Source of the DNA: a virus
UHGV virus genome: UHGV-1440165
Length of the DNA: 64,000 nucleotides
Direction: 5' to 3' (one strand)
In this document: positions 15,686 to 53,611 of the stretch, in pieces
Layout of the letters: each line of letters opens with the position of its first letter
How positions within the stretch are numbered: the stretch's first letter is position 1
Program-made: the position numbers and the translations under genes
The notes under the pieces: model-generated
The model's database searches: none
Seen by the model: only the letters and a program-made list of their open reading frames with translations
What the model was told of the DNA's origin: nothing

Positions 15686-15714
15686 AGTATAGGGGAGGGT
15701 GTTTCAAAAGTAAA
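15686..15714 (-). promoter_or_regulatory. sigma70-like early promoter TTTACT-N17-TATACT
   Basis: Hexamers with 17-nt spacer immediately after terminator hairpin. Confidence 0.5.
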
Positions 15715-15737
15715 GCCCCTCATTGAGGGGCTTTGGC
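15714..15737 (-). terminator. rho-independent terminator (AAAGCCCCTCATTGAGGGGCTTT)
   Basis: Stem-loop after glutaredoxin gene. Confidence 0.6.
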
Positions 15738-15740
15738 AGA

Positions 15741-15965
15741 TCAGCGTTTGAGGCTGGCGGCGAGTCCACTAACGTCGGTCACGGTCTGGTCAGCGAGGAC
15801 GATAACAGGCATCGACATGCGCTGCTTACCCGTCAACTTCTGAAGTTCTTCCAGCTGATAATCCTTGTCCAGCTTCAGAATCTTGTGGTCCAGCCCTTTC
15901 ATCTTGCACAGATTTTCAGCTGTAACACACTGCGCGCAACCTTGTTTAGAGTAGATCGTAATCAT
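15741..15965 (-). CDS. glutaredoxin/NrdH-like redoxin
   Basis: CAQC active-site motif, 74 aa, directly upstream of nrdB/nrdA. Confidence 0.65.
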   Translation of the reverse strand: MITIYSKQGCAQCVTAENLCKMKGLDHKILKLDKDYQLEELQKLTGKQRMSMPVIVLADQTVTDVSGLAASLKR

Positions 15966-15974
15966 TTCTCACCT

Positions 15975-17078
15975 TTAAGCGAATTTGAGACCGTCGGATA
16001 CTGAACCAGTCAGTACACCCATCAGATAATCAGGAGCTTCCGCTTCCTGCAACGCGTACTGCATTGTCTTATTATTTAGCCACTCGTTGATCCATGGCAC
16101 TGGGCATTCCTTACGTGGTTCCCCAGGATATGGGTGTCCGATAGCGCCCATGCGGTGGGTGAGCAACCAGTCTACCATATGGTGTAGGATCTTCGCGTTC
16201 AGGCCAAGCATGGAGCCGTCCTGGAACAGATAGTCAGCCCATTGCTTCTCCTGATTACCCACGTCCAAGAACATCTGGGTCATCTCACCACGCAGTTCCT
16301 CACGGATGATTTCGAAGTCAGGGTCCATACCAGGCAGGCGGTTCAGCAGAGTCTGGGTAAGGATCAAGTGGTCTTGCTCATCACGGGCGATCTGGCGGAT
16401 GATTTTAGCGTTGCCTTCCATCTTCTTCTGGAACTGCGTGAACGCCCAAGAGCATGCAAAGGACACGTAGAAGCGGATGCCTTCCAGTGTGTTGGCAGCA
16501 AACAGAGCACGCCAGAATGCGCGTTTGGCATTCATAATGTCTTCACGAGTAAAGGCGCGACCAGCCATACGCATACCACTGTAACGAACCATATCGTCAT
16601 AGTGAGTACTAATCTGATGAGCGCAGTCCACGATCTCTGCAACGTCTAACACGTGGTCAAACACGATACCAGGATCGTTCACAGTGTTTCGCAGGATGTG
16701 GGTGTACGACAGGGAGTGAATGGCTTCTTGACGTGTCCACTCAAGGACGGCGAACTGCATTTCAGGGGTAGACGCCCATGGACCAAACGCCTCGAACGGA
16801 GCCGCGCCCTGGATAGAATCCAGCATGGTCTGGCGCTTCAGGTTGCTTTCATAGATGCGCTTTTCAGCAGGTGTGAGTGTTGCATAGTCGGCCTTGTCCT
16901 TAGTGATGTCTACTTCTTCCGGACGCCAGAACTGGCTGAGGCCTTTCTCATACCACTTCTGTACGAATGGCCAAGCTACGATGTCATAGCGCTGAATGCT
17001 CACCGGATCGCCGAAGAACGGCAGGCCAGTGTTGTCAGAGCTTGGGTCGAATACGGAGAATTGTTTCTGTTCGCTCAT
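15975..17078 (-). CDS. nrdB: ribonucleotide reductase class Ia beta subunit
   Basis: Ferritin-like di-iron R2 motifs, 367 aa, adjacent to nrdA. Confidence 0.9.
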   Translation of the reverse strand: MSEQKQFSVFDPSSDNTGLPFFGDPVSIQRYDIVAWPFVQKWYEKGLSQFWRPEEVDITKDKADYATLTPAEKRIYESNLKRQTMLDSIQGAAPFEAFGPWASTPEMQFAVLEWTRQEAIHSLSYTHILRNTVNDPGIVFDHVLDVAEIVDCAHQISTHYDDMVRYSGMRMAGRAFTREDIMNAKRAFWRALFAANTLEGIRFYVSFACSWAFTQFQKKMEGNAKIIRQIARDEQDHLILTQTLLNRLPGMDPDFEIIREELRGEMTQMFLDVGNQEKQWADYLFQDGSMLGLNAKILHHMVDWLLTHRMGAIGHPYPGEPRKECPVPWINEWLNNKTMQYALQEAEAPDYLMGVLTGSVSDGLKFA

Positions 17079-17148
17079 GTTTCTTTCCTGATGAATAAGG
17101 GGTGATCTCTCACCCCTGATGATATAACGGTAGCAGGTTTAGACCAAC

Positions 17149-19428: not shown

Positions 19429-19513
19429 AGCGATCCTCGGTTTGTGTTATAAGCAGGTTTTATTATACGCCGCCCTCGTAGATTGAAGGCGGCGGGGAGT
19501 GTTGATGAGTTAC

Positions 19514-20356: not shown

Positions 20357-20434
20357 GGGAACCTTCCTATATCTAAGGGGTGTCATCACCTTTAATTAAG
20401 GCGACACACCCAGCATACCCGAGGCTTGGATAAA

Positions 20435-20457
20435 GAAAAAGGCCGTTTCCGGCCTTT
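20435..20457 (-). terminator. rho-independent terminator (AAGGCCGTTTCCGGCCTT)
   Basis: Stem-loop after endolysin gene. Confidence 0.6.
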
Positions 20458-20460
20458 GAG

Positions 20461-21255: not shown

Positions 21256-21314
21256 AAGAAAATACCTCCGCAATGAATGCGAAGGTATTTAAAGTGAAAG
21301 TGAACTACTTGAGA

Positions 21315-21593: not shown

Positions 21594-21778
21594 CTTGCTA
21601 CCACCACAGGCATGACTTCGTTGAAGGACGTACGAACTTCAGTGTCGTACCCGTATTTTTCCAGGACTGCTAACATCGCCTGCTCGAGTTCCTCTTGGAA
21701 CTGAGGGAAGACTTTGTTCGGAATGCGGTCGGCAACCCAGAGAGCGCCTGAAGAGGCTTGAATGACCACACGGCTCAT
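21590..21778 (-). CDS. hypothetical protein
   Basis: ORF, ATGA overlap with neighbours. Confidence 0.4.
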   Translation of the reverse strand: MSRVVIQASSGALWVADRIPNKVFPQFQEELEQAMLAVLEKYGYDTEVRTSFNEVMPVVVAR

Positions 21779-21975: not shown

Positions 21976-22000
21976 GACCTCCTACCAAAAATCTGAATAA

Positions 22001-22020
22001 GGAGGGGAGTTTCCTCCCCT
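22001..22020 (-). terminator. rho-independent terminator (GGAGGGGAGTTTCCTCCCCT)
   Basis: Perfect stem, U-run on minus strand; same core recurs at 47551. Confidence 0.65.
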
Positions 22021-22025
22021 TTCGA

Positions 22026-22514
22026 TTAAGCCAGTTTGCTTACCAGGGTCTGAACGTCTTTGGCGGTCAGTTTACCCATTTTGACGTACTGAGCTTTTGC
22101 TTCGCCACCAGCAGCTTTCACGATGTCGGTGTTGTCGTAGCCCTTCTTAGGGAAGACCATCACAGAGAAGGAACCGTTGTTCAGCGGGTTCAGCTGGATG
22201 CGACCTTTGCCGACTACGATGGTGCCGTAAGTTTCGGTGTTCGCTTCGACAACGTGGATGTCGTGGCCCAGGTCTTTCAGCATGCCAACTTTGTCGGCAG
22301 TCTTAGAAACCACAGCTTTGTCAACCACAACCTGCTCTACCAGGGTGAAGCCGTTAGTCGCTTTCACTTTACCGTTCAGCAGGTTCATGAAGGAAGTCTT
22401 GCCACCAGTGAAGCCAGCTGCCTGAGCGATGCGGAACATTTCAACTTTAGCAACTTCGGTGTTCAGTTCGAAAGAGATGGTGCCGTTGGTGATCAGAGTT
22501 TTGGTAGTAGCCAT
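22026..22514 (-). CDS. hypothetical protein (162 aa), probably abundantly expressed early protein
   Basis: Start MATTK with GAGGAA RBS; own strong promoter and terminator. Confidence 0.55.
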   Translation of the reverse strand: MATTKTLITNGTISFELNTEVAKVEMFRIAQAAGFTGGKTSFMNLLNGKVKATNGFTLVEQVVVDKAVVSKTADKVGMLKDLGHDIHVVEANTETYGTIVVGKGRIQLNPLNNGSFSVMVFPKKGYDNTDIVKAAGGEAKAQYVKMGKLTAKDVQTLVSKLA

Positions 22515-22587
22515 GATGTAATTCCTCATAATGTAGTTGGTTCGTTTCACTTTTCATTCGGCGGTGTGTTGCCGCCCTATGTGAACT

Positions 22588-22616
22588 ATAATAGGGCACC
22601 ATTATTGAAGAGTAAA
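22588..22616 (-). promoter_or_regulatory. sigma70-like early promoter TTTACT-N17-TATTAT with AT-rich upstream region
   Basis: Hexamers and spacing read directly; GC hairpin (GGCGGCAACACACCGCC) lies just downstream at predicted transcript 5' end. Confidence 0.55.
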
Positions 22617-22660
22617 GTCTTTTTCAATAATTTTTTAAAATATTTTTGAAGTATTTTAAA

Positions 22661-22681
22661 AGGCCTCATTCGACGAGGCCT
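22661..22681 (-). terminator. rho-independent terminator (AGGCCTCGTCGAATGAGGCCT)
   Basis: Stem-loop plus T-run on minus strand. Confidence 0.6.
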
Positions 22682-22710
22682 GGAGGGAAGGTGATGTGAA
22701 GTAAAAAGTT

Positions 22711-26394: not shown

Positions 26395-28398
26395 TCACCA
26401 AACATTCAGAAATAGTGCATGACCCATACCGCCGTTTGACTGAAGAGACCATTTTCCTGTTTCTCTTCCCAGGCGTTCTATGTTGTTGAGTTGGTTTATC
26501 GACAATTCAGAAGAGTCGAATAATACCACATCACGTTTTTTGGGTTCTCTCAAATAAGGTCCGAGATCAATATCAATCATCCGGTTTATAAATTCTACTA
26601 CTTCGGCTTGTTTCTTTGGTAATGTGATATCCGGCCTGTTTGTCACTTTCTCCAAGCGTCTATTTTCTGCGCTTATCATGGACAGCATAATTTGTGTAAC
26701 TTTGCCGTCAGACAAGTTGTAATCGTTCCAAATCACTTCACCTTTATCCGTGATGGTTATATCATTCAAGAAAACCTGGTTTGGGTTGTATGTCTGACTT
26801 TTCAACTGTTGGAGGTTTCTGGAAAGATATTCCATTTTTGATGAGATTTCATCGATCATGGATTGAACAATATCTTTCTTCAAAGTAAGTTCATAGGTCT
26901 TCGGATTGTTCAGGGTACGCCCTTTCTGGGAGACAATTGGGGTGAATGCAACTTTGCCTTTGTCATGATAATAGGTTACGTTGGTTATCATAGAAGTACC
27001 GGCATATTTTCCGGTTTCAGGGAAATTGATTCCAGACCAAGTGATGGACATGCCGTTCTCTGTTTCCCCGAACACTGATGCGTTTTTCGGGATTCGCAGA
27101 TCTTTAGAACTGATTGCATTTGGATTCGGTTCTGCTGCTTTCGCCTGAGGAGCCAACTGATCGATAGCACCCTGTACCACTCCAGTCAATTTGGATGGTT
27201 TGGTGATGTCGATGTCACGGATTACGATAGGCTGGCCGATGGTTTGCCCACCAGGTCCCAATTCTGTAACTGCCTTGACTGTCAAGACAATCGGATCACT
27301 CCCTTTGATGATGCCACGGTTGATTGTGGCCACCACTGCAGATTTACCGCCGAATGTCAAGCTACCAGAGGCCATTGTCATAGAGGATACGCCGCGAAGA
27401 TCATTCACTTTGTAGAATGCGTTCACCAGAGCACGCCAGCGGTCTGTTGTGAGTTCGGCTGCCGTGGTTTGAGCAGGAGCCACAGCCCCAACGCCAAATT
27501 CAACATAAGCCACAATCTTACCACCAGACTTCAGTTCCCAACCCATGCCCTGGCGGTCAGAAGCCGCCATGATTTTGCGATCCACTTCCCCACGACCAAC
27601 ATACTCTTTGTCGAACACAGTTACCTGGGCGATGGTTTGGGTGCGGGCAATCTTCGCCATTGCGCCATCTTTGACCATGATGGCCAGGTCGTTGGAACTC
27701 AGAGTCACATCGTTGGCACCGACCACCTTCACAACAGAACTGAAGATGCCGTTGGATTTTGCCATGACGGAAATGTTCCAGTCTGGATTGTTGGGCGAAG
27801 CCCCCACATCCGGAGTATTGTTCTGAACCGGAACGTCGCCGACCTTGTCTGGATCATCCCAGGTGATGCCCTGCATCTTCGGACCGTCGAATACCTGAGC
27901 CGGATCTTTGCCCTTGCGGACCAGCCACACATAACCACGGTCAGGGACAGGCGCGTAAGTCAGGTCCATGACGTTCAGTTTCTGTTTCAAACCAGACTGA
28001 CGGATGATCTTTGGAATCAGGGTCATACCGCGATCCAGGGCTTTCTTGGAGAAGTTCACAGCATAGCCATCGATAGTCTTGCCAAGAGGAGTCGCCATGA
28101 ATTGTTTGGTCGCTTCGATCATGGAGGCGATGACGCGCATTGGGTTCTTGAAGCGAGCAATAGCGTCAGGGTAGACGGAGCCGCGCTTCTGGCCTATGAA
28201 GACCTGGCGGACATTCTTGCCCAACCCCTGTGGGGTATAGAACTGGATGCGGTATTCTTTTTCATCTTCGTCGATGAAGGTGAAGAACACATCGCCTGCG
28301 TTCTTCTTGCCCATGGTCAGCTCATACGGAGCGGAGTTGAACGCTTCGTCCAACTGATCTCTTTCCTGCATGAACTGGAGGAAACTTGGCTTTGACAT
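26395..28398 (-). CDS. large hypothetical protein (667 aa) with CTS-like N-terminus; candidate capsid-packaged, injected protein
   Basis: N-terminus MSKPSFLQFMQE...LDEAF; size similar to T4 Alt (no catalytic motifs confirmed). Confidence 0.4.
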   Translation of the reverse strand: MSKPSFLQFMQERDQLDEAFNSAPYELTMGKKNAGDVFFTFIDEDEKEYRIQFYTPQGLGKNVRQVFIGQKRGSVYPDAIARFKNPMRVIASMIEATKQFMATPLGKTIDGYAVNFSKKALDRGMTLIPKIIRQSGLKQKLNVMDLTYAPVPDRGYVWLVRKGKDPAQVFDGPKMQGITWDDPDKVGDVPVQNNTPDVGASPNNPDWNISVMAKSNGIFSSVVKVVGANDVTLSSNDLAIMVKDGAMAKIARTQTIAQVTVFDKEYVGRGEVDRKIMAASDRQGMGWELKSGGKIVAYVEFGVGAVAPAQTTAAELTTDRWRALVNAFYKVNDLRGVSSMTMASGSLTFGGKSAVVATINRGIIKGSDPIVLTVKAVTELGPGGQTIGQPIVIRDIDITKPSKLTGVVQGAIDQLAPQAKAAEPNPNAISSKDLRIPKNASVFGETENGMSITWSGINFPETGKYAGTSMITNVTYYHDKGKVAFTPIVSQKGRTLNNPKTYELTLKKDIVQSMIDEISSKMEYLSRNLQQLKSQTYNPNQVFLNDITITDKGEVIWNDYNLSDGKVTQIMLSMISAENRRLEKVTNRPDITLPKKQAEVVEFINRMIDIDLGPYLREPKKRDVVLFDSSELSINQLNNIERLGRETGKWSLQSNGGMGHALFLNVW

Positions 28399-28443
28399 TT
28401 TATATCTCCTGATGGGAATATGGCGGTTTCCCTTAATTAGCGA

Positions 28444-28671
28444 TCAGCCGCGCAATTGATACTGCATGATTCGTGAAAAGCTATCGCTTGTCAGGACGCA
28501 TCCTTCAACGATTTCCACAGAAAGATCCTGATCCACCCGATAACGCTTGCCATTCAAATCAAAGTAAACATAGAAATAACCGCGACGTTCCACCATATCC
28601 AGATTACTGATGCTTGAAACTTCTGGCAATTTGGTGATGATCGACTGAACGATATAAGACAACACATTCAT
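28444..28671 (-). CDS. hypothetical protein
   Basis: Start MNVLSY with AAGGAA RBS. Confidence 0.4.
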   Translation of the reverse strand: MNVLSYIVQSIITKLPEVSSISNLDMVERRGYFYVYFDLNGKRYRVDQDLSVEIVEGCVLTSDSFSRIMQYQLRG

Positions 28672-28693
28672 GATATAGTTCCTTCGGTTCAAA

Positions 28694-28927
28694 TTAAAGA
28701 GAGGCTTCAGATTTCACAACAGCTACCAGGGCGGCAATTTTCTTGCTGCTGGTAATCTTTTTACGGCTACCCTGGTTGCCCGCTTTCGGGGTGTTCAGCT
28801 GTACTACTGGGGTGTCAGTCTCGGCACCGTAAACGTGGTAAAAACCTTCACCTTCAACAGTAAATGTAGCGTGGGAAGCAAAGCGGCTAACTGCTGGTAC
28901 AAAGTAAAAACCGGTTACTGTAGTCAT
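28694..28927 (-). CDS. hypothetical protein (78 aa)
   Basis: Start MTTVTG with AAGGAA RBS; own promoter. Confidence 0.45.
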   Translation of the reverse strand: MTTVTGFYFVPAVSRFASHATFTVEGEGFYHVYGAETDTPVVQLNTPKAGNQGSRKKITSSKKIAALVAVVKSEASL

Positions 28928-28975
28928 GGTGTAGTTCCTTCGTTTCAAGTTGGTGTCGTACTGCTTATGTATTGA

Positions 28976-29004
28976 AGTATAGGGAAGGTTATTGAAGAAG
29001 TAAA
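28976..29004 (-). promoter_or_regulatory. sigma70-like early promoter TTTACT-N17-TATACT
   Basis: Directly follows terminator hairpin GGGGCTTTTGCCCC. Confidence 0.55.
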
Positions 29005-29022
29005 GGGGCAAAAGCCCCTTTT
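29005..29022 (-). terminator. rho-independent terminator (GGGGCTTTTGCCCC)
   Basis: Stem-loop after 29035..29673. Confidence 0.55.
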
Positions 29023-35867: not shown

Positions 35868-35875
35868 TATAAATA
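35868..35875 (+). promoter_or_regulatory. T4-type late promoter box TATAAATA
   Basis: Exact box ~36 nt upstream of ATG at 35911. Confidence 0.5.
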
Positions 35876-35910
35876 TCCCAAACTGGTTTTATAGAAAGAG
35901 GAATGAAACT

Positions 35911-39428: not shown

Positions 39429-40091
39429 TTACACCTCCACCGCGTGGGACTTCAGGAGTTCGTCAATCGCTTTCTGTCCCATGTAGGAGAACGGGGTGCG
39501 CTGGTAGAACGCCCACAGTACCAGCTGAACAACGGCACGGGAACGGGTTTCAGCCGTCATCACCAGGTCACTGAAATGAGGAGACTCGGCTGTCCATTGG
39601 ATCACTTCGCCGAAGTCCTGATTGCAAGTCACAGAGATGCGGAACTTGTTGCACAGATCGTCGACTTCTTTGTAGGCATCGGTGGACACTCGGAGTTGTT
39701 CCGCATGCATCCAAGGGGTTGTGACGATCCTTTCACCCAATGTCTTGTCCGAAATGAACCATTCGACCGTTTTGTCAGATTTGGAGAATCCGTTGATGCG
39801 GTAGATACCGCCTTGTGACTCCATACTGCGCATGGCGTGATAGCGAGCATCGATTTCGTTGTTATGCATGGCATTGAAGTCAATGAACACGCGCCGCGCC
39901 AACACATCGTCCTCCGGCTGAAGAGCCAGGAAATCGTTCAGGCGGCTATAATGGAGGACATTGGAACCGTCGTGGCCATGTGTGCAATATGCGTAATAGC
40001 TGCCGATACGGGCGTGGGCAACATAAGACAACGGGGCGAAGAATAATCCGTCAGGATCAGGTCCGACGATGATAGAATAAAGTTTTTCCAT
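39429..40091 (-). CDS. hypothetical protein (220 aa)
   Basis: Start MEKLYS. Confidence 0.5.
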   Translation of the reverse strand: MEKLYSIIVGPDPDGLFFAPLSYVAHARIGSYYAYCTHGHDGSNVLHYSRLNDFLALQPEDDVLARRVFIDFNAMHNNEIDARYHAMRSMESQGGIYRINGFSKSDKTVEWFISDKTLGERIVTTPWMHAEQLRVSTDAYKEVDDLCNKFRISVTCNQDFGEVIQWTAESPHFSDLVMTAETRSRAVVQLVLWAFYQRTPFSYMGQKAIDELLKSHAVEV

Positions 40092-40146
40092 GATATAGTC
40101 TCTCAAATGAAAGGCGGCCTTATGATAAGCCGCCCGAGATTATTGA

Positions 40147-41444: not shown

Positions 41445-42127
41445 TCGTTCTCCTTCATCATGTTATCACAGTCGACACGAGTCTGTTGCAGCTCACGCGA
41501 CATACGAGGATCGTCGAGGTTCACACTCAGATTCGTGGCCAGATCTTTCAGGCCGTTCTGAACACGATCCTCATAATAGTGGTCGTTCTCAACCAGCCAG
41601 GCTCTGAGGCCAAGAGCGCGGGTACGCCATTGTTTCTTCAGAACACGGTCGGTTGTTTGTTCGGCACTGTACTCAAAGACCTTGATGCACTGGTTGCCAT
41701 CGTCGATAAGGTTCAGGTGACGGCGGCCAATCTGCACACCCTTCTGTAATGCCGGAGAAGGGAGCGAACGGCACTGTCTGACGGTCATGCGTCCTTGGGT
41801 GCCCATACGCCCAGTCATGATCAGATCGCTGGCCTCCATGCCTCCACGGTTAAATTCGTCGTCATTGAGGTAGCCCTTGAGGTTATAGGCTCCCTGTTTG
41901 TATCGGTTGAACTCAATCCCGGCATTGACAACAGCGGTGGAGACGTTGCCTGTGTTCCAGAGTTCAGCAAAGTTCTCTATGGATCCAGACTTATCGATTG
42001 CGACTGCCTGGGAGAACCCAGCGCAGTAGGAAAGATCAGACCACAGTTTGTCACCTGTGGTGTTCAGCTTGGCAGCGGCAGGGAGTGCCAGACCTGCAAG
42101 CACAACCCCAAGGATTAAACGTTTCAT
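41441..42127 (-). CDS. secreted (periplasmic) protein
   Basis: Signal peptide MKRLILGVVLAGLALPAAA; AAGGAGAA RBS. Confidence 0.55.
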   Translation of the reverse strand: MKRLILGVVLAGLALPAAAKLNTTGDKLWSDLSYCAGFSQAVAIDKSGSIENFAELWNTGNVSTAVVNAGIEFNRYKQGAYNLKGYLNDDEFNRGGMEASDLIMTGRMGTQGRMTVRQCRSLPSPALQKGVQIGRRHLNLIDDGNQCIKVFEYSAEQTTDRVLKKQWRTRALGLRAWLVENDHYYEDRVQNGLKDLATNLSVNLDDPRMSRELQQTRVDCDNMMKENE

Positions 42128-42211
42128 GGTGATTCTCCTTATTTCATTGGATGAAATGATAGGCGGCTCACCATGCTGAGTAAAGGGTTTCAATAAACTA
42201 TCGTATTCAGA

Positions 42212-42804: not shown

Positions 42805-43092
42805 TCACACCTCGTCTTCTTCAGGTCCACCGTCAATCAGGATACGAGCGGTGTCGAAAGTTTCCCCGCCCGTGTTCAGCAGCTTGGTCAGATCGTCAAG
42901 ATATCGGACCGTGCCAAGATCAGATGACCGCGTTATAAATTCCAGCATACCATACAGGGCTGATTTGAATCGGCTGTTGTCGATATCGTTCTTGATTTCC
43001 ATCAGGCGCAAGATGTTCTCTGACTGAGTATGGCCAACACACGCCTTGTCTCTGATCATCTCCTTGATAGAACTTCTCTCTGTTGGTGTCAT
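42805..43092 (-). CDS. hypothetical protein (95 aa)
   Basis: ORF. Confidence 0.4.
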   Translation of the reverse strand: MTPTERSSIKEMIRDKACVGHTQSENILRLMEIKNDIDNSRFKSALYGMLEFITRSSDLGTVRYLDDLTKLLNTGGETFDTARILIDGGPEEDEV

Positions 43093-43466
43093 AACGAACC
43101 ACCCCCGACAGAGATCAAGAACTCTTCTTCAATGGTCGTGACCGGGCGGCGGTTGCGGGTTTCGATCATGAAGCCCCAGCCGCCGTCGGCGACGTTGCCA
43201 AAGGTCTTGACGCCAAAGGTCTTCTTCCCGTTGGAGCAGGCATAGAAGTCCAGGATGAACGGGCTACCCTGATTGTCGATCCCACGGTTTACGCCGTCCG
43301 CTACACAGCGCTCAATCATCTTCCCGTTCTTATACAGAACGAGGTCTTGGCCATACGCCTTGAAAGCATAAACGCCGTTGGTAGACACTCCGGTGATGAC
43401 AGGAGGAGCGGAAACAGCAGAGAAGGAAGCGCCCAGCAGGGCAACGGCGAGGATTAACTTTTTCAT
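43089..43466 (-). CDS. secreted protein
   Basis: Signal peptide MKKLILAVALLGASFSAVSA. Confidence 0.55.
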   Translation of the reverse strand: MKKLILAVALLGASFSAVSAPPVITGVSTNGVYAFKAYGQDLVLYKNGKMIERCVADGVNRGIDNQGSPFILDFYACSNGKKTFGVKTFGNVADGGWGFMIETRNRRPVTTIEEEFLISVGGGSL

Positions 43467-43518
43467 GATATAGTCTCTTGGTTTCAAATGGGCGGGGTAT
43501 GATTACCCCGCCGTGGGT

Positions 43519-44025
43519 TTATAGGGTAACAAGTGATACGGTAAAAACCATCGTCCCGTCAGTTGCCATTTTTCTTGAAACTGGTATGACGCGAGGCTGG
43601 CAGAATATCCATTCTTTCTCCATGGACGCCAAGTCCAGCATATCCATTTCTGATTCATCGCCTTTGTTCACAAATTTTTCTAGAGAACCATAGACATTAA
43701 GCCCCTCCGGGAGTCCGTTTCGATGTTTGTAACATATGCGGGCGACAGCTCTGGTTCCATACGATTTAGAAAATTGTTTGGCCACATGCTTCAGTTCACT
43801 GAAGCTAAGACAAGAATCCCATGTCTGAAACATGTCTCCTCGTTCAAACATCATCTCCAAACGCGCAACGTCCTCTTTAGGCAACCCGCGATAAAGTGTG
43901 GTCATCTGCGGTTCGCGTAATTCTCGCACCAGACCACGGATGGCAGGGGAAACAGTGCCAGGGCGCATGATGTGGGACTTATCATGGACGAGGTAAAATA
44001 AATCTTGAATTTGTTGATCGGTCAT
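43519..44025 (-). CDS. mono-ADP-ribosyltransferase, T4 ModA/ModB-like
   Basis: R motif TLYRGLPKE (T4 ModA PLWRGVPAE), S-x-S region DSCLSFSE, ExE-like SMEKEWIF, in ModA order and spacing. Confidence 0.55.
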   Translation of the reverse strand: MTDQQIQDLFYLVHDKSHIMRPGTVSPAIRGLVRELREPQMTTLYRGLPKEDVARLEMMFERGDMFQTWDSCLSFSELKHVAKQFSKSYGTRAVARICYKHRNGLPEGLNVYGSLEKFVNKGDESEMDMLDLASMEKEWIFCQPRVIPVSRKMATDGTMVFTVSLVTL

Positions 44026-44084
44026 GATGTATTTCCTTCATTTCAAATAGGCGGGGTAATCATACCCCACCCTAAGTTATAGAA

Positions 44085-44324
44085 TTAACTGATGTGCTTC
44101 AGAAGAGCGAAGAGGATCGCGGCCTTGGCTTTCACCTTTCCGACGACGCCTGTTTCGACATCGACTTCTTCGGCAACCCAATCTTTTCCCTTCTTGCTGA
44201 TGATAACATCGCGGCGCTGGGCATATACTTCTTTGGTCGCATACACACGGCGGAACCCTTTAGCGCGGAGCAAGCCCCAATTGCGATCAATCTCTACTGA
44301 AGTTTCGACCATTTTGTTCTTCAT
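44085..44324 (-). CDS. hypothetical protein (79 aa), basic
   Basis: ORF with own promoter. Confidence 0.45.
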   Translation of the reverse strand: MKNKMVETSVEIDRNWGLLRAKGFRRVYATKEVYAQRRDVIISKKGKDWVAEEVDVETGVVGKVKAKAAILFALLKHIS

Positions 44325-44375
44325 GATATAATCTTACCTTTCAACCTGGTGAACCCATCGTTCGCCAGTTATTGA

Positions 44376-44404
44376 ATAATAGGACATTCTTTAGAGGAAG
44401 TAAA
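44376..44404 (-). promoter_or_regulatory. sigma70-like early promoter TTTACT-N17-TATTAT
   Basis: Hexamers read directly; follows terminator hairpin. Confidence 0.6.
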
Positions 44405-44421
44405 CCCCTAAAAGTAAAAAT

Positions 44422-44439
44422 CCCCAACAAACGTTGGGG
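44422..44439 (-). terminator. rho-independent terminator (CCCCAACAAACGTTGGGG) followed by U-run on minus strand
   Basis: Perfect 7-bp stem. Confidence 0.6.
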
Positions 44440-44457
44440 ATTTAATAAAAGTTATGC

Positions 44458-44682
44458 CTATTTAATTTCTCGGCTTGAATTTTCCAGTTCTAATTTTCTT
44501 ATAGCGGAAATTCTACCTTCATCAGTTGCGGGAAACTCCCAAACAGCACGACGTCCGTTGTGAGTATCACAACTTGCCAGCCAGAAGAAATTAGAGGGAT
44601 CTTTAAACAAGACCAATTTAGGGTTAGCAATATTGTTCAGGCAAAATGGGGCGAGGTCAACAACGCGTGATACAGCAGACAT
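44458..44682 (-). CDS. hypothetical protein (74 aa)
   Basis: ORF flanked by duplicated terminator-promoter cassettes. Confidence 0.45.
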   Translation of the reverse strand: MSAVSRVVDLAPFCLNNIANPKLVLFKDPSNFFWLASCDTHNGRRAVWEFPATDEGRISAIRKLELENSSREIK

Positions 44683-44731
44683 AATATATACCTTCTTTCA
44701 ACGGACGGGAACGCCCCGCCCTATGAATTCA

Positions 44732-44760
44732 ATAATACGTATTTGCCTTATAGAAGTAAA
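44732..44760 (-). promoter_or_regulatory. sigma70-like early promoter TTTACT-N17-TATTAT
   Basis: Same architecture as 44376..44404. Confidence 0.6.
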
Positions 44761-44777
44761 CCCCTAAAAGTAAAAAT

Positions 44778-44795
44778 CCCCAACGTTTGTTGGGG
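44778..44795 (-). terminator. rho-independent terminator (CCCCAACGTTTGTTGGGG)
   Basis: Same stem as 44422 with reverse-complemented loop. Confidence 0.6.
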
Positions 44796-44802
44796 ACTTC
44801 TG

Positions 44803-45126
44803 TTATTTGCGCAGGGCAACCACGAATTCAGCGAGTTCACCCATGGTCGGGTCATCGCCTTTACTGCCCAGCCAGCCGTCGTCTATTTCGACCTGAAACT
44901 CTTCTTCTAGTTCCATTACGATTTCGATAGCATCCAGTTCATCGCCGCCGAGGTCTTTCTTGGTGCGGAGGCCAGCCAGTTTGTCCAGGGCGTCTTCGTT
45001 TTGAGATGCCACGTCGTCCAGCAGTTTGCGCTTGTCATCGTCGCGCCACAGATCCATATTCAGATTCTCTGTAGCGTACTGAGCCAGGTGTCGCATCACC
45101 TCAACATATGTCGGTTTACTGCTCAT
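44803..45126 (-). CDS. acyl carrier protein homologue lacking the phosphopantetheine-attachment serine
   Basis: DLGGDELDAIEIVMELEEEFQVEIDD versus E. coli ACP [26 protein letters not shown]; the DSL serine is Glu here. Confidence 0.65.
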   Translation of the reverse strand: MSSKPTYVEVMRHLAQYATENLNMDLWRDDDKRKLLDDVASQNEDALDKLAGLRTKKDLGGDELDAIEIVMELEEEFQVEIDDGWLGSKGDDPTMGELAEFVVALRK

Positions 45127-45168
45127 GTCACTTCTCCCAAAGAAGGGCGGGTTGCCCCGCCCGTTGGA

Positions 45169-47397: not shown

Positions 47398-47550
47398 CGG
47401 CCTCACCTTCCGGATTGACCAGCATGTGTTCAACGAATTCGCGATTCAGCTCAATCTGGCTCATCAGCGCATCCGTCGGAGTAAAGCGGCGGTCGAGGTT
47501 ATCGACACCCGCACGTTTAAATGGTTTGGACATTCCTCGACCTCAAAACA

Positions 47551-47568
47551 GGGGAGTTTCCTCCCCTT
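47551..47568 (-). terminator. rho-independent terminator (AGGGGAGTTTCCTCCCCT)
   Basis: Same hairpin core as 22001..22020. Confidence 0.6.
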
Positions 47569-47574
47569 CAGTTA

Positions 47575-49239
47575 TTAGATTTGTGAGGCCAGTTCTGCCA
47601 CCAGAGGAGCAGCACGAACACGCGCATCTTCCAGAGTCTGAGTGTTGAAGAACTTGCCATCACGGTACACCAGTTGGTGTTGGTTGTCGGCGTCTTGCAC
47701 CTGATCAAAGGTGATGCCGTCAACCAACACTAGTTTACCCTGAGAGTCTTTAATGACTTTAAGGAAACCACGCGCAGACTTTTTAGTCCCGCCTTTGTCG
47801 GTCTTCGGCTCTTTGAAGATCTCGCGGAATTCACCGTTCACCTTACCAGCCGTCGCTTTCACTGCCGTTCCAGTACTGTCACGGGTGTTCATCTGGTAGG
47901 TGTAGGAACCAATACCGAAGACCACGTTAATGGAAGCGAAGTTCCGGCCAGCCAGACGACCAAAGATCTGGTCTTCACGTGCCAATGTGATAGAGTCACC
48001 GTAGATCAGACCGATGTGATCGTCCAACAGGAAGTGGCCAGTCTCAGTTTGAGTACCGCCAAAGATCTCCCACAGGCGCTGAATAGAGCCGACTGCTTCA
48101 GAACGGCTGATGATATTACTGTCGTCTGCCATCAGAGAGTTGATCGTACCTTCGCCTGTGATCAGGTGATAGGTGTTCGTCTCTTCGATGTGGATGACTT
48201 CGGTGCTGCTGGACACGCCGCTGATGTTCAGCATAGCGCGGTCTTTGAACCCCTCGATGCGGTAGCCGCCGACGATGTGAACTGGGTCGCCAGAGTCAGG
48301 GCGGATCACGACTTTGCCGTTGCGTGCCATGATAATGTCTTTCAGGCGAGGGAGATAGTCGTCGATGACCTGCCAATAGTCCCACGCATCCGACACAATG
48401 CTGACGATGCCATCAGGATACACGTCCTGCACCAGGCGACGGAAGGTTTCGAATTCTCCATTCTTCGTACCCATGCACATCACGGCGTGTTCGGTGGCTG
48501 CAACGGAGCCAGCAACGACATAGTCTTCATCGATATCCGCGCCGTAATACTCTTCAACGAAGTCCAGGGCAGGGTTGGTGTCAGTGCCTTTGAAGAACAC
48601 CAGATGGCCAGAACCGGAAGACGCCGCGTCATGCCATCCGCTCATACCACGGAAGGAGAAGTCGTGGCCTTGGTAATCGATGAACCAATGGTCCGGTGAC
48701 ACGCCTGTGGCGATAGCGGCTTTCACCATCAGTGCCTTGTAATGCAGGGCGATGGTGGCGTTCGTCATGGGCTTCCAGATCTCAGAGCTGAACACAGTCT
48801 CCAGATAGTTGGTCAGCCAGTAGAACTCCGGCAAGGTGTTGAACATCACATACACCGGAACGCCATACGGGCACATGGTGCCTTCGGGTAGAGCACGGAC
48901 TTCGATAGGCAGATAACCGAGGTCATGCAGGGCTTCGATATGCTCTGTGCCAACACGACCTGGACCCAGTACTTTGTTCATGCGACGGGCATACTTCTTC
49001 AACACCTTGGCCTTCGGGCGCTGGAAGAACGCTTCGTCAAACAGTTCGTGGAACCAGGTCATGAAACCCTGGATGCCCCAGACCACCACGCCGTTCTTCG
49101 GCAGGTGAGAGTTGAATAATTTGTTGGAACGCGGAGTCCCGTTGGAGAACACCAGCTCACTACCTTCAGGGAACTGATAGATGTGCCCTGATTTGTAGAA
49201 GTCGATTGCATGAATTGGGTCTAAGTGGCGCATGCTCAT
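47575..49239 (-). CDS. nicotinamide phosphoribosyltransferase-family enzyme (NadV/NAMPT-like; candidate NARP1 Namat)
   Basis: Full-length NAMPT-like sequence (554 aa) read from the translation; no single motif checked. Confidence 0.75.
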   Translation of the reverse strand: MSMRHLDPIHAIDFYKSGHIYQFPEGSELVFSNGTPRSNKLFNSHLPKNGVVVWGIQGFMTWFHELFDEAFFQRPKAKVLKKYARRMNKVLGPGRVGTEHIEALHDLGYLPIEVRALPEGTMCPYGVPVYVMFNTLPEFYWLTNYLETVFSSEIWKPMTNATIALHYKALMVKAAIATGVSPDHWFIDYQGHDFSFRGMSGWHDAASSGSGHLVFFKGTDTNPALDFVEEYYGADIDEDYVVAGSVAATEHAVMCMGTKNGEFETFRRLVQDVYPDGIVSIVSDAWDYWQVIDDYLPRLKDIIMARNGKVVIRPDSGDPVHIVGGYRIEGFKDRAMLNISGVSSSTEVIHIEETNTYHLITGEGTINSLMADDSNIISRSEAVGSIQRLWEIFGGTQTETGHFLLDDHIGLIYGDSITLAREDQIFGRLAGRNFASINVVFGIGSYTYQMNTRDSTGTAVKATAGKVNGEFREIFKEPKTDKGGTKKSARGFLKVIKDSQGKLVLVDGITFDQVQDADNQHQLVYRDGKFFNTQTLEDARVRAAPLVAELASQI

Positions 49240-50090
49240 TTTACACGTCCTGTATTTTCAGTTTTGAAAGGAAGACCGTCGGCGGTGATGTTCTCCCACC
49301 AGACAGTGTCGGCATACACAGCATCGTAGATCCCGTCGAAAACAGAGAGACCTTTGCTGAAGATGCCATGGGTAACGAAGAGCGTCATGTGCTTAGGCTT
49401 GTGCTTCTGAAGCTCTTTACCCAGCTCAACAAACGTGCGCCCACCGTCGCAGATATCATCAACCACAACCAGATAGCGGTCTTTGATCAGTTCAGGGTTT
49501 GTAATACTCACCCCAATGATTTCACCAGTCTTGGTGTCACGGTTCTTGTGTCCGTAGACAACAGGAACGCCATCCAATGACAGGCTGAGGGTTTCGGTCT
49601 TCTTCGCCGCGCCGCCGTCAGGGGCTACCAGCACAGCATTGTTCCCACGGATGAACCAGCCCAGATACTGGCGCACGATGTGATCTTGTGGGACCACATG
49701 GACGTTGTTGATCAGGGAAGACACAACATGGCTGTGAGGGTCTTTGATCGCCACGCGGTCAAAGTTCATGTTGTTGATGAACTCAGCCGCCCACTTCACG
49801 GACAGAGGCTCGCCGAAGTCGCAATGGCGGTCCTGGCGAGCATACGGGAAGTAAGGGATATACGCATGGAAGGTAGTCAGACGGTCCACGTTACCCAGGC
49901 CGCGCACGGCGTTTACCAGAAGCGCCAGCTCAATGAAGTCGGCTGATGATTTGATGTGAGCATCAATCACCACGTTCTGGACGTGACCGACAGGGATGCC
50001 AGCCTTTTGGATCTTGATATGTTCCTCACCACCTGGGAAGGTGAAGTGCTTGTAGAACACATCTTGGTCGTTCAATTTCAAACGAAACAT
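49236..50090 (-). CDS. ribose-phosphate pyrophosphokinase-family enzyme (Prs-like; candidate NARP1 Adps)
   Basis: PRPP-binding motif VVVDDICDGGRT; 284 aa; ATGA-coupled to NAMPT-like gene. Confidence 0.75.
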   Translation of the reverse strand: MFRLKLNDQDVFYKHFTFPGGEEHIKIQKAGIPVGHVQNVVIDAHIKSSADFIELALLVNAVRGLGNVDRLTTFHAYIPYFPYARQDRHCDFGEPLSVKWAAEFINNMNFDRVAIKDPHSHVVSSLINNVHVVPQDHIVRQYLGWFIRGNNAVLVAPDGGAAKKTETLSLSLDGVPVVYGHKNRDTKTGEIIGVSITNPELIKDRYLVVVDDICDGGRTFVELGKELQKHKPKHMTLFVTHGIFSKGLSVFDGIYDAVYADTVWWENITADGLPFKTENTGRVK

Positions 50091-50200
50091 AATGTAGCCT
50101 CATGGTGTATTGTACAGCCGTATTATACTGTGATGCACAAATTGAAACGCCCAGCAAATATACCGGGCGTTATTGTTATTGAAGGAGTTTGCTGATTCAG

Positions 50201-50995: not shown

Positions 50996-51017
50996 AATAG
51001 TTTCCTCAGATAAAAGA

Positions 51018-51039
51018 AACCCCGCACAAGGCGGGGTTA
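51018..51039 (-). terminator. rho-independent terminator (AACCCCGCCTTGTGCGGGGTT)
   Basis: Stem-loop plus U-run on minus strand. Confidence 0.6.
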
Positions 51040-51059
51040 CTCAGGCCGGAGCCGACAGA

Positions 51060-51431
51060 TTATTTCAGCAGCGCTTCCAGTTCTTCAACAGATTTGCCTT
51101 CCAACTCCTGCTGTTTCTTACGCTGGATCAGCTCCAGGATAACCTGGTTGTTCGCCTTACGCTCTGCCGCGTCTTTGCTGTCATCACGCTCTTTCAGCTT
51201 GACGCCGATGATGTGCTTGACAACGTCGAAGCGCAGCTGCAGTTCGGAGTCAACGTTGCTTTTGGTGCCGATGAAATCTTCTTCATCGGTTTCCGCTGCC
51301 TTCACCTGACGGCTCAGGCTTTTCGCCATTTCGTTCAGGGCAGTCAGGCTCAGGTCCCAAACCTGCTCAACAGACAGCAGACCTTTGTTAGACTCGAAGC
51401 GCAGTTTCAGACGGGTTACTTTATCAAACAT
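51060..51431 (-). CDS. hypothetical coiled-coil protein (123 aa)
   Basis: ORF. Confidence 0.45.
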   Translation of the reverse strand: MFDKVTRLKLRFESNKGLLSVEQVWDLSLTALNEMAKSLSRQVKAAETDEEDFIGTKSNVDSELQLRFDVVKHIIGVKLKERDDSKDAAERKANNQVILELIQRKKQQELEGKSVEELEALLK

Positions 51432-51477
51432 TTTACTATCCTCAATGATGAATGGGTTACAGTTTCAAATCAGGGTT

Positions 51478-53496
51478 TTAGAACACAACTTTCACAGTAC
51501 GGTTGAACGAGCCGCTCACCTTCACGAACACGTGGTTGCGTTGGGTGGTAGAGAAGCCCAGTCCGGACAGCTGCTCAGTGCTTGGCTGTACCTTAATCTT
51601 ACTACCTAACATTTCAAAAACCTTACGGTGTTTATCCAGTTCCGGCTTCAGATATTCGTTGTAGAAGCCACGGGTGCCGACCGGGTTGGCACAACCTTCC
51701 AGGATGAAGAACACGTGCTTGTTGCCCGTCTGCTCGCCGTCCCAATGGTTTGGTGAGTTCAGAACCAGTTGCACCTTCTGGAAGACTGAGGTCTTGATAC
51801 CCCAGATTTCCTGGGAGCGAGCGTCGTCTTTCAGGGTCGAACTGATGCCTGTCAATTGTCCAGCGCGGACGTGGAGCACAACAGCCAGGGTGCGGTCTTT
51901 ATGCTTCAGACCGGGATGTGAGAAGCGCTTGGTCTGCCCTTTGTATTCGACTTCAATTTCAAAGCCCATATCGCAGGTTTCACGCTGGCTGAAGTTGGTG
52001 ACATAGAACTCATAGTCGCCATCGCGCAGCTTGCGCTCATCGCTGAAGAAGATGTTCTCGACCGGGCGACGATTTGGATCAATACCGTCCATGCCGTTCA
52101 TGTCGATGTCCAGGGTTGCGCCAGTTGCTGAACGACGGTTGTGGTAATACACATGGTTGTGCAGCGGATCGTTCATGCTCAGGTCCAGGTCATCGTTGTT
52201 GTGCCAAGCCAGGGACACCCGGAGGAAGCTGTCAACGTTGCCACCAGCGGTCTTCACGCGCTCTTTGATGGAGTCAGCCACTTCACCGTTGTATGACCAG
52301 CTGAAGCCGTTGTTCCACTTGAACAGGTTAGGAGCGCCAGCGGTAGCCGGAGCAATCAGAGACATCAGGTTGCCAGTGTGGGAGTTCTCAACCAGCACTT
52401 CCAGGGAATGCGCCTTTGGCAGCACGTTCGTCAGGAAGTCATCGATAGTGATCTCTTCAACCTTATCCAGGGACTTGGTTGGAGTCTTCACTTCAGACGC
52501 CAGCTGAGCAAACGGGTCCATCTTCTTCTGAGCCGCCAGGTCGGCGAACAGAACGTTGTTGATGGTCAGATCGTCATACACGGCATAACGGCGACCCAGT
52601 GAATCGGTCAGACCCAGCGCTTCAACTTCTTTCTGCGCGTTTTCGATCATCGACTTGGTCACCAGCGCAGTTGGGCGCTTGTAGTTCGTCGGAGCTACTT
52701 TGGCTTCGAAAGACTTGACGGCGGTTTCCAGGTCGCGGCCTTCGTTGAGGTCTACCAACAGAGAGCCAATCACGGTATTACGAATGCCGTGAGGGGTATG
52801 ACCGTTCGCACGATAGCCAGTGCGCCAAGCCCACAGAGCGCGTTTCTCTTCTGCAGTCTGTTCGTACAGGGTCTTGTTCACCACGAACGCCTGCACTGCC
52901 GCCTTGTGCTCTTCACCGCGATACAGAGAATTCTGATCAATCAGTTCCAGGACGATTTCGGCCGATTCCAGAGACAGCTCACGCAGACCGCGCTCAAACA
53001 CTTCGATCGCCTGGCGGATTTCACCCTTCTTAGAAGCGATGCCATCAGCGCGCAGAACATAGCTGCCCAGCAGATCGGCATGGAAGTGGTTATAAGTGCG
53101 CACGTTGCCGTCTTTCATTTCGTGATTCGACTCAACGCCGACTTTCTTGGTGTCGTTGAAGTATACGTCGACGATTGCGTGCTGTTTAACATACGCCGAC
53201 AGCGCCGCCGCAACAACATCGTATTCGTTACCCAGCTGAATGCCGTCCCAGATAGTAATCATTTCGTAATCAGGGGTGATGGTGACCACGCCGCCGATGT
53301 TACGGATGAATTGTTTGCAGCAGGTGCAGTCGTGCTCGGTGCGCTCACGGTAAAGCGGGTTAGTGCCCGCAGGGAAAGAAGACAGATACAGATCCCACAG
53401 AGCATCTTTATCGGTGTTGGTCATGAACAGACCAGTTGCTGACATGGCCAGCACGTTGTTGTTTACGGCTACTGCGAAGGGCTTGAATTGTGACAT
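51478..53496 (-). CDS. large hypothetical protein (672 aa)
   Basis: AGGAAG RBS; N-terminal HDCTCC cysteine cluster; no family recognised. Confidence 0.55.
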   Translation of the reverse strand: MSQFKPFAVAVNNNVLAMSATGLFMTNTDKDALWDLYLSSFPAGTNPLYRERTEHDCTCCKQFIRNIGGVVTITPDYEMITIWDGIQLGNEYDVVAAALSAYVKQHAIVDVYFNDTKKVGVESNHEMKDGNVRTYNHFHADLLGSYVLRADGIASKKGEIRQAIEVFERGLRELSLESAEIVLELIDQNSLYRGEEHKAAVQAFVVNKTLYEQTAEEKRALWAWRTGYRANGHTPHGIRNTVIGSLLVDLNEGRDLETAVKSFEAKVAPTNYKRPTALVTKSMIENAQKEVEALGLTDSLGRRYAVYDDLTINNVLFADLAAQKKMDPFAQLASEVKTPTKSLDKVEEITIDDFLTNVLPKAHSLEVLVENSHTGNLMSLIAPATAGAPNLFKWNNGFSWSYNGEVADSIKERVKTAGGNVDSFLRVSLAWHNNDDLDLSMNDPLHNHVYYHNRRSATGATLDIDMNGMDGIDPNRRPVENIFFSDERKLRDGDYEFYVTNFSQRETCDMGFEIEVEYKGQTKRFSHPGLKHKDRTLAVVLHVRAGQLTGISSTLKDDARSQEIWGIKTSVFQKVQLVLNSPNHWDGEQTGNKHVFFILEGCANPVGTRGFYNEYLKPELDKHRKVFEMLGSKIKVQPSTEQLSGLGFSTTQRNHVFVKVSGSFNRTVKVVF

Positions 53497-53611
53497 GATG
53501 TAGTCTTCCTGTTTCAGTTCAAATGTGCGCCCCGTTTGCCAGGGCGCTTCGTTTAAGTGAGGTCAATAATACGTTGAAAAGAGTTATTGAAGAATGAAGT
53601 AAAGGGAATCT

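Follow-up and report, generated by a model that had tools for sequence, protein, structure and literature searches.

Several T4-like phages (RB49/phi1, T4/PST and KVP40/nt-1) carry promoter-early stem-loop (PeSL) cassettes, composite units of promoter, stem-loop and Shine-Dalgarno (SD) sequence that are repeated in hyperplastic regions and that have, in T4/PST, the consensus TTTACW-N17-TAYWAT (Arbiol 2010, PMC2839356; Comeau 2014, PMC4122927). The stem-loops of the RB49 PeSLs have been shown to terminate transcription, and crossovers have been mapped within the stem-loop. For Vi1-like phages, TTCAAT[N14]TATAAT is a published family motif (quoted for EspM4VN, PMC7283392), several such sites are listed as putative early promoters in the AG3 supplementary table (PMC3121705), and LIMEstone1 has been annotated with five 'early' promoters through similarity to T4; the CBA120 genome paper reported that early promoters of Vi1-like phages were not identifiable by informatics and that the regulation of early and middle transcription was unclear. 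Here we describe the minus-strand spacers between early and middle genes in the virus genome UHGV-1440165, of which a stretch of 64,000 nucleotides was analysed (the window). In our view these spacers are rather likely to be PeSL-like repeated modular cassettes that mark sites of gene gain, loss and swap. According to megablast, the window belongs to a Vi1-like, Agtrevirus-like phage of the Ackermannviridae, with Salmonella phage pSal-SNUABM-02 (Agtrevirus) as best match (94-95% identity), the Shigella phages MK-13, ChubbyThor and Ag3 and the Salmonella phage SKML-39 next (~90% identity), and ~280 matching Vi1-like genomes in total. The minus strand carries almost all of its genes, among which the annotation of relatives points to functions in replication, recombination and nucleotide metabolism: nrdAB, primase, gp46/47, gp55, helicase, gp45/44/62, regA, uvsW, uvsY and gp32.

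The likeness to the PeSLs is extensive. In both systems a composite unit of ~100 bp, made up of AT-rich tract, sigma-70-like early promoter, GC stem-loop, SD sequence and start codon, is repeated between small open reading frames (ORFs) without assigned function in variable regions, and indels or replacements are bordered by its copies. The cassettes share the -35/-10 consensus of the T4/PST type exactly. The stem-loop of a PeSL may precede the promoter, lie between -35 and -10 or cover the -10, and each of these positions occurs here or in relatives. Every sequence-level feature of the PeSLs was thus found: early promoter, stem-loop within the unit, an SD/start end, conservation of copies over ~100 bp and variable-ORF neighbours. 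Since the window belongs to the Ackermannviridae and not to the T4-like myoviruses, we file the system as PeSL-like in its working and not as a member by descent. Further differences are an additional geometry, in which the hairpin lies 3-10 nt downstream of the -10 box and thus inside the promoter's own transcript, and a conserved TTGAA box which, together with a G-poor CTAYAYC spacer, forms a portable translation-initiation region (TIR) that also exists in promoter-less copies. The hairpin just past the -10, the TTGAA box and the CTAYAYC spacer are all outside the PeSL description. Activity and mini-circles have been demonstrated for the PeSLs, whereas the cassettes described here are known from sequence alone.

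A sequence-only reading of the window had pointed to at least five minus-strand promoters with TTTACT, a 17-nt spacer and TATTAT or TATACT, each directly after a terminator, and in this part it proved accurate. TTTACT-N17-TAT[AT][AC]T matches at exactly those sites, with TATACT at 15686-15714 and 28976-29004 and TATTAT at 22588-22616, 44376-44404 and 44732-44760; the scan for TTTACT-N17-TATWMT returned five minus-strand matches against 0.02 in shuffles and none on the plus strand. A GC hairpin with a T-run precedes each of them (15712-15734, 22658-22681, 29002-29022, 44410-44443 and 44766-44799), and at 15714 and 29004 the -35 hexamer is the terminator T-run itself. The sixth promoter of this type, TTTACT-N17-TATCAT (42156..42184, minus strand), lies without hairpins before the gene start at 42127 and is kept in all genera. 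The motif keeps to one strand and is shared by four genera (Agtre-, Limestone-, Kutter- and Taipeivirus). Because k-mer enrichment over the whole window was swamped by codon bias, the 35 true intergenic spacers (3.2 kb) were analysed instead, and TTTACT occurs in seven of them (1.1 expected), TTGAAA in 11 (1.1 expected), TTCAATA in seven (0.36 expected) and GGGCGG in six (0.29 expected). Full cassettes have a conserved CATA 7-8 nt after the -10, at the A of which we placed the predicted +1. Judged from these motifs, the TTTACT-N17 sites would be active promoters with early timing. The range of the architecture had been drawn up to 53603, where, however, the TTTACT (53598-53603) stands out of register: its spacer to the -10 is 26 nt, and it is therefore not a -35 element or a member of the TTTACT-N17 set.

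Reading of all minus-strand spacers yielded full cassettes at five gene starts (15634, 22514, 28927, 44324 and 44682), in the order upstream stop with a TTCAATAA-type AT-rich box, terminator, TTTACT-N17-TATWMT, CATA, leader and (A)TTTGAA(A)-N3-5-AAGGA-CTAYAYC-ATG; these and all units below lie on the minus strand. The cassette at 15632..15734, before a 77-aa gene (15401-15634), has a 4-bp mini hairpin (15660-15671) and the TIR TTGAACAGCAGGAACTACACC-ATG (15632-15655), and is kept in Kuttervirus. Before the gene at 22026-22514, the cassette (22512..22681) includes an AT-rich UP-like tract, CATA, the leader hairpin GGCGG-loop-CCGCC (22560-22576) and an ATGAAA box with two in-frame ATGs (22512-22557), and is kept in three genera with a variable loop. 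These ATGs (22512-22531) lie 15 nt apart, at 22529 and 22514, each after a CTACAT-type spacer; a clear SD sequence (GAGGA) is found only at the second (22514), and the arrangement is kept in Kuttervirus. The cassette at 28925..29022, before a unique 77-aa gene (28694-28927), consists of terminator, promoter, the unstructured leader CATAAGCAGTACGACACCAAC (28949-28969) and TIR (28925-28948), with no leader hairpin. The remaining two stand close together: one before a 79-aa gene (cassette 44322..44443, gene 44085-44324) with the leader hairpin CTGGCGAAC/GTTCACCAG (44346-44368, z -2.45) and TIR at 44322-44344, the other before a 74-aa gene (cassette 44680..44799, gene 44458-44682) with the leader hairpin GGGCGGG/CCCGTCC (44703-44721) and TIR at 44680-44701.

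Truncated versions consist of hairpin and TIR (at 43466, 44025 and 40089) or of the TIR without a hairpin (at 28671 and 15389), as in TTTGAACCGAAGGAACTATATC-ATG (28669..28693) before a 75-aa gene (28444-28671). The unit at 44023..44078, before an Alt-like RNA polymerase (RNAP) ADP-ribosylase gene (43519-44025), is composed of a TTCTATAAC box, the hairpin GGGTGGGGTA-TGAT-TACCCCGCC (44049-44072) with TATGAT in its loop and ATTTGAAATGAAGGAAATACATC-ATG (44023-44048), and is the left copy of a direct repeat, D1. The right copy belongs to the unit at 43464..43545, before a 125-aa gene (43089-43466), in which TTTACC-N16-TATAAA (43518-43545) lies inside the end of the Alt-like gene and is followed by the hairpin GGCGGGGTA-ATCA-TACCCCGCC (43491-43512, z -3.7), with flipped loop, and the TIR (43464-43489). 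In the unit 40089..40135, the hairpin GGGCGGCTTA-TCAT-AAGGCCGCC (40113-40135) has TATCAT in its loop and a T-rich tail, and the unit ends with ATTTGAGAGACTATATC-ATG (40089-40108). The hairpin GGGCGGG-GCAA-CCCGCCC with TTCTTT (45139..45162), before an acyl carrier protein gene (start 45126), is conserved and terminator-like and belongs to the T-run class, not the TTGAA class.

Among the starts named in the sequence-only reading, 53496 and 58357 do not have the TTTACT-N17 promoter: both use the published TTCAAT[N14]TATAAT motif, of which the window has seven matches with at most one mismatch (0.17 expected), among them 53566-53591 and 58412-58437 (one mismatch each), 19462-19487 and 54864-54889. 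The unit before a 672-aa gene (unit 53494..53603, gene 51478-53496) carries TTCAAT-N14-TATTAT (53566-53591), the conserved leader TTGACCTCACTTAAACGA, the hairpin GCGCCC-loop-GGGCGC (53527-53547, z -5.1) and a TIR (53494-53523). The unit ancestral to gp44 (58355..58437), which now feeds a homing endonuclease gene (57701-58357), carries ATCAAT-N14-(TGc)TATAAT (58412-58437), the hairpin GGGCGGGG-CTTT-CCCGCCC (58389-58407) 4 nt past the -10, and ATTTGAAA...AGAGGCTGAA-ATG (58355-58388). Measured from TTCAAT to the -10-like hexamer that follows, the spacings cluster sharply at 8-10 nt and at 13-15 nt, and they do so on the sense strand alone; the latter class is the published motif and the former falls inside the spacers of TTTACT promoters, so that the five TTTACT-N17 sites, with TTCAAT 8-10 nt and not 14 nt from the -10, do not match it. 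A TTCAAT box at about -30 had also been considered as a new promoter element and was dropped, TTCAAT[N14]TATAAT being already published. The accessible papers on the motif describe no link to hairpins. For the family as a whole, literature searches turned up no mapping of transcription start sites and no transcriptome, and no paper that describes its leader hairpin, TTGAA box or shuffling of cassettes.

A GC hairpin followed by (A)TTTGAA(A) and AGGA-CTAYAYC-ATG recurs at ~10 gene starts; in the window YTAYAYYATG is found 15 times on the minus strand and never on the plus strand, and ATTTGAA 13 times against three. TTGAA or TTTGA follows 7 of 26 intergenic GC hairpins and 5 of 117 inside genes (p=0.0013). 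The conserved boxes ascribed earlier to the named starts do recur, with the qualification that 8344 and 58357 are without the CTAYAYC spacer and that 22514 has ATGAAA in place of TTGAAA. A role of TTGAAA as the -35 of a -10 overlapping the ATG was rejected, the spacing being only 9-11 nt.

The hairpins themselves are present at all seven starts for which they had been claimed (8344, 22514, 43466, 44025, 44682, 53496 and 58357), and folding of the predicted leaders, which had been proposed as a check, gave hairpins of -12 to -23 kcal/mol with the TTGAAA-SD-AUG stretch left open. Their stems are 5-10 bp long. In the hairpin family of 43466 and 44025 (13 variants), 98.3% of cells pair, and two pairs change on both sides, from G-C to A-U with G-U intermediates, a score reached by only 2 of 500 shuffles; in that of 45126 (10 variants), 92.9% pair, with a G-C to C-G swap and two compensatory pairs. 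Slid controls of the two families drop to 33-64% paired (39-61% for 43466/44025), and the wobble intermediates are all G-U on the sense strand. Single comparisons agree: in the 95%-identical pSal-SNUABM-02 both sides of a pair in the 44682 stem have changed, from G-C to A-U, three changes in Kuttervirus leave the shape of the 44324 stem intact, the 40089 hairpin has a G-C to A-U compensatory change in pSal02 and Ag3, and at 53496 the stem is invariant among 18 variants while the loop varies in sequence and length. In the gp45-gp44 unit, wholly different stems stand at the same place in Agtre-/Limestonevirus, Kuttervirus and Taipeivirus; these divergent stems are mis-registered by MAFFT/RNAalifold and pair counts there are unusable. 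These hairpins are selected as sense-strand RNA structures. The Rfam 15 covariance models at gathering score returned no match in the window.

A -10-like hexamer (at least 5 of 6 positions) ends 0-12 nt upstream of seven of the nine TTGAA-type hairpins, as opposed to 3 of 20 T-run or other hairpins (p=0.002), the background of such hexamers in spacers being 13%. The leader begins with a GC hairpin at 22514, 44324 and 44682, where the hairpin is predicted to start at about +4, and at 58357 it starts at about +1. At five sites the hairpin follows the -10 box by 3-10 nt, has no U-tract and keeps its pairing, and a role as 5'-terminal stem-loop is therefore plausible there. The proposal that the hairpins lie at or near the 5' end would thus apply to 22514, 44324, 44682 and 58357, and not to 53496, 8344, 44025 and most orthologues of 43466; among the TTTACT promoters it fails at 28927, which has no hairpin and whose conserved leader folds worse than its shuffles (z +1.7), and at 15634, with only the 4-bp stem. 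Emory, Bouvet and Belasco are said to have described in 1992 5'-terminal stem-loops of the E. coli ompA 5' untranslated region type that stabilise mRNA. The window resembles that type in its GC hairpin, predicted 0-4 nt from the 5' end at these four starts and followed by an open ribosome-binding site (RBS), and differs from it in that some cassettes do without the hairpin and that, at 53496, its distance from the predicted 5' end is too large.

At 8344, 44025 and most 43466 orthologues, a -10-like hexamer (TATAAT or TATGAT) lies within the loop, an arrangement found in 5 of 31 intergenic hairpins (0.86 expected by chance) and in 2 of 445 inside genes. The cases are at 3173 (TGCTATAAT), 8430 (TATAAT), 44072 (TATGAT), 50171 (TATATT) and 54881 (TATAAT), with 40135 (TATCAT) as a further one. 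The RNA of such a promoter would lack the 5' arm, and only in read-through RNA could the stem therefore have an effect. The loops of terminator hairpins contain perfect or near-perfect -10 hexamers (TGCTATAAT, TATAAT and TATATT) at 3144-3170, 54852-54877 and 50146-50171, and before nrdA (19462-19494) TTCAAT is in the loop with TATAAT right after the 3' arm, all on the minus strand; terminator and promoter thus overlap within ~30 bp. Probably, then, some of the hairpins are 5' stem-loops and others attenuators that overlap promoters.

The cassettes are associated with changes in gene content. Entire cassettes recur in Agtre-, Limestone-, Kutter- and Taipeivirus, always on the coding strand, and the same cassette may stand before different genes: that at 29004 precedes at least three unrelated ORF starts in different phages, being followed by ATGACTACAG in the window, by ATGACACAACTC in pSal02, Ds9CZ, KpnM-20 and IME250, and by ATGAAAATYATCC in Ag3, cp16 and SeHz-1. 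The 77-aa gene of the window (28694-28927) has no homologue in six relatives. It is one of three consecutive minus-strand genes at 26395-28927 (667, 75 and 77 aa) with no homologues or only 55-59% identical ones in these relatives, a window-specific variable block bordered by the 29004 cassette. Copies of the hairpin-TIR unit, forming a 57-nt direct repeat, stand on both sides of the Alt-like gene (PHROG 832); phages without this gene have a single unit, which in pertopsoe consists of the left half of one window copy and the right half of the other. Likewise, the 74-aa gene, found in one of the six relatives, is flanked by a 47-nt direct repeat of the terminator/-35 unit. In the Taipeivirus cp16 two TIR copies flank the place of the absent 15634 gene and the cassette is joined to the next gene, and Ag3 has the same 79-aa gene behind a different cassette. 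Between gp45 and gp44, the homing endonuclease gene at 57701-58357 (minus strand; PHROGs 314, 25551 and others) has been inserted precisely at the ATG of the unit ancestral to gp44; Ag3, Ds9CZ, Kuttervirus and Taipeivirus do not have it. Overall, a cassette element precedes 6 of 10 variable and 5 of 35 conserved genes (p=0.007). Between the two copies of each direct repeat the stems agree and the loop is reverse-complemented (43491-43512 vs 44049-44072, TGAT/ATCA; 44418-44443 vs 44772-44799, AAAC/GTTT), a pattern resembling a palindrome 'loop flip', the expected outcome of template switching or of recombination across the arms.

The mechanism that we propose would involve four parts: an intrinsic terminator, with a T-run that adjoins or itself forms the -35; a T4-early-type sigma-70 promoter, TTTACT-17-TATWMT, with a start at the A of CATA 7-8 nt past the -10; a 45-60-nt leader with a GC hairpin ~3 nt from the predicted 5' end or a conserved unstructured sequence; and a portable, single-stranded TIR, (A)TTTGAA(A)-N3-5-AAGGA-CTAYAYC-AUG. 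Shorter versions, with hairpin and TIR or the TIR alone, would connect genes within operons, and a second promoter type, TTCAAT-N14-TATAAT, is interleaved with hairpins in other ways, its -10 falling in the loop, just before or just after the stem. Leader hairpins right after the -10 would protect the 5' end from 5'-end-dependent decay by RNase E/RppH and insulate the TIR, and promoter-less hairpins or those with a -10 in the loop would attenuate read-through transcription. Since many gene boundaries share the same 25-110-nt sequences, ORFs may be exchanged by homologous recombination between cassette copies, which would insert, delete or swap them exactly at the start codon, and an incoming ORF would thereby already be supplied with terminator, promoter, leader and RBS.

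A rival account, which we regard as improbable although it is the most serious one, would see in the GC hairpins only terminators or attenuators at the 3' ends of upstream transcripts and in the proximity of promoters a tight packing of the two. The precedent of the terminating RB49 stem-loops speaks for it, as do the promoter-less copies directly after stop codons (43466 orthologues, 44025, 40089 and 45126) and the -10-like hexamer in the loop of six hairpins, since transcripts from that promoter would lack the stem. With their GC-rich 5-10-bp stems, short loops and position between genes, the hairpins do resemble intrinsic terminators. The TTGAA-type hairpins have, however, only 2-4 U after the stem, whereas the true terminators of the window have at least 5 T in 8 nt, and the terminator scanner left the hairpins at 43512, 44072, 44721, 44368, 53547, 58407 and 8428 uncalled; it called those at 45162 and 40135, which have T-rich tails. 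In addition, the post-stem box is conserved as TTGAA(A) and is not just T-rich, and the TTTACT cassettes already have a canonical terminator 40-90 nt upstream, their leader hairpin lying inside the promoter's own transcript. The suggestion of the sequence-only reading that the hairpins are not simple terminators therefore stands for the TTGAA type and the TTTACT cassettes and not for 40089 and 45126. Its alternative role for them, as processing sites, corresponds to a reading in which the hairpin with AUUUGAA is cut by an endonuclease (RNase E/G or a phage nuclease) that splits cistrons and leaves a protective hairpin at the new 3' or 5' end. T4 and T7 mRNAs are known to be processed between cistrons, a stable stem does lie beside a single-stranded AU-rich stretch between cistrons, and the sequence is conserved beyond structural need. 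RNase III sites were rejected, a double-stranded stem of ~20 bp being needed where 5-10 bp are present, and the TTGAA box is likewise present at starts that have no hairpin (28671, 28927 and 15389), which is a better fit to translation initiation; we hold processing to be quite unlikely.

We give equally little weight to a role of the palindromes at the DNA level alone, as recombination hotspots or cruciforms for cassette exchange with the RNA structure irrelevant. The direct repeats at indel borders, the reverse-complemented loops, a DNA-level change, and the crossovers within the RB49 stem-loop would all fit. The G-U wobbles, which would be A-C mismatches in the other strand or a cruciform, the GNRA-type loops (GCAA and GAAA) at 45126 and the consistent placement relative to -10 boxes and TIR argue for RNA instead. 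The TIR (UUGAAA...AAGGA-CUAYAYC-AUG, with or without hairpin) might also be a shared operator for a translational repressor, with the RegA homologue at 55791-56255 as candidate and a co-regulated early regulon as the result. According to the T4 review, RegA of T4 binds unstructured sites that overlap the AUG of ~30 early mRNAs, gene 44 included; in the window the G-poor spacer and box are kept at ~10-15 starts on one strand, and regA is annotated in relatives. The RegA sites of T4 and RB69 are, however, AU-rich with poly(A) or UAA (T4 review) and unlike CUAYAYC, the gp44 start of the window is without the CTAYAYC spacer, and common descent, cassette gene conversion and selection for a strong open RBS can explain the conservation; we consider the repressor account a long shot. 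The same low probability is assigned to the wider conjecture that 5'-hairpin-UUGAAA-AAGGA-CUAYAYC-AUG is more than a stabiliser with a strong RBS, namely a dedicated post-transcriptional operator of an early regulon, read by the RegA homologue, an unknown RNA-binding protein or a nuclease.

Recombining PeSL-like cassettes remain our preferred explanation, and several points weigh against it. A generic sigma-70 scan of the window gave 21 matches against 17-19 in shuffles, and since there is no excess such a scan is unable to validate promoters alone. The searchable literature has no transcription start, termination or decay data for any of the Ackermannviridae, which is why promoter use, timing and the position of the hairpins in RNA are predictions. 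At 53496 the predicted RNA runs for ~12 nt before the hairpin, more than classic 5'-terminal protection would allow, and leader hairpins are missing from two of six TTTACT cassettes and are thus not essential to the promoter. Covariation was sampled in 10-13 related sequences, with two pairs per helix, its power being limited by the 6 and 16 loci returned by pattern scans of viral contigs; the gene-variability test used our own ORF map and six relatives; and recombination between cassette copies is inferred from comparisons, not observation. Set against the sequence-only reading as a whole, the promoter motif and the non-terminator hairpins are retained, and what had been overlooked is that the cassettes are repeated, modular and apparently recombining.

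Some further features of the window deserve mention. The leader of the gene-32-like single-stranded DNA-binding protein gene (leader 8345..8440, gene 7301-8344, minus strand) contains the hairpin CGGGGTA-TAAT-TACCCCG (8411-8428), with TATAAT in its loop, followed by CTTGAAAC (8403-8410). Another hairpin, GCCCC-GA-GGGGC (8365-8376), comes after the conserved ACAGAATA and stands ~20 nt upstream of the AUG. Both are kept in three genera, the loop of the first being invariant (GTATAATTAC), and the leader may be the counterpart of the T4 gene 32 autoregulatory leader. The exact T4-type late promoter TATAAATA is present in three copies (35868-35879, 5853 and 11119), on the plus strand only and ahead of plus-strand (late) ORFs; TATAAA/TATAAC before hairpins were rejected as late promoters, as only six of eight positions match. 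A second published family motif, CTAAATAnCCC, is found just once (61346-61356, minus strand), ahead of a UvsW-like helicase gene (start 61324). The terminator stem AGGGGAGGAAACTCCCCT is present twice on the minus strand (21995-22023 and 47548-47569), ~25 kb apart and downstream of different genes. Among the cassette-fed genes PHROGs labelled only the homing endonuclease and the ADP-ribosylase, and a Pfam search of these genes gave no match. A minus-strand module of two genes (47575-50090), of 554 aa (nicotinamide phosphoribosyltransferase in the annotation of relatives) and 284 aa, is found among six relatives only in Ag3 and cp16, with 91-98% identity across genera, which suggests recent exchange. 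Upstream of gp45, a 710-nt AT-rich non-coding stretch (59106-59815) has several TATTAT boxes on both strands, and the block right before the gp45 start is kept in all genera compared; it may be a divergent promoter or origin region.

For the family, these cassettes offer a concrete and testable set of early promoters and leaders, conserved in four genera, where the authors of the CBA120 genome found none by informatics, and they would imply that the shuffling of PeSL-like cassettes extends beyond the T4-like phages. Were the operator reading true, it would be a way of timing the early-to-middle switch in a family lacking MotA, AsiA and RegB. For phage engineering the cassettes supply natural parts of small size, a terminator, promoter, 5' hairpin and standard RBS fitting into ~110 nt. 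Phages of this kind find wide use against Salmonella, E. coli O157, Shigella, Klebsiella and Dickeya, and knowing the points at which their accessory genes are swapped would help to interpret genome differences among therapeutic isolates.

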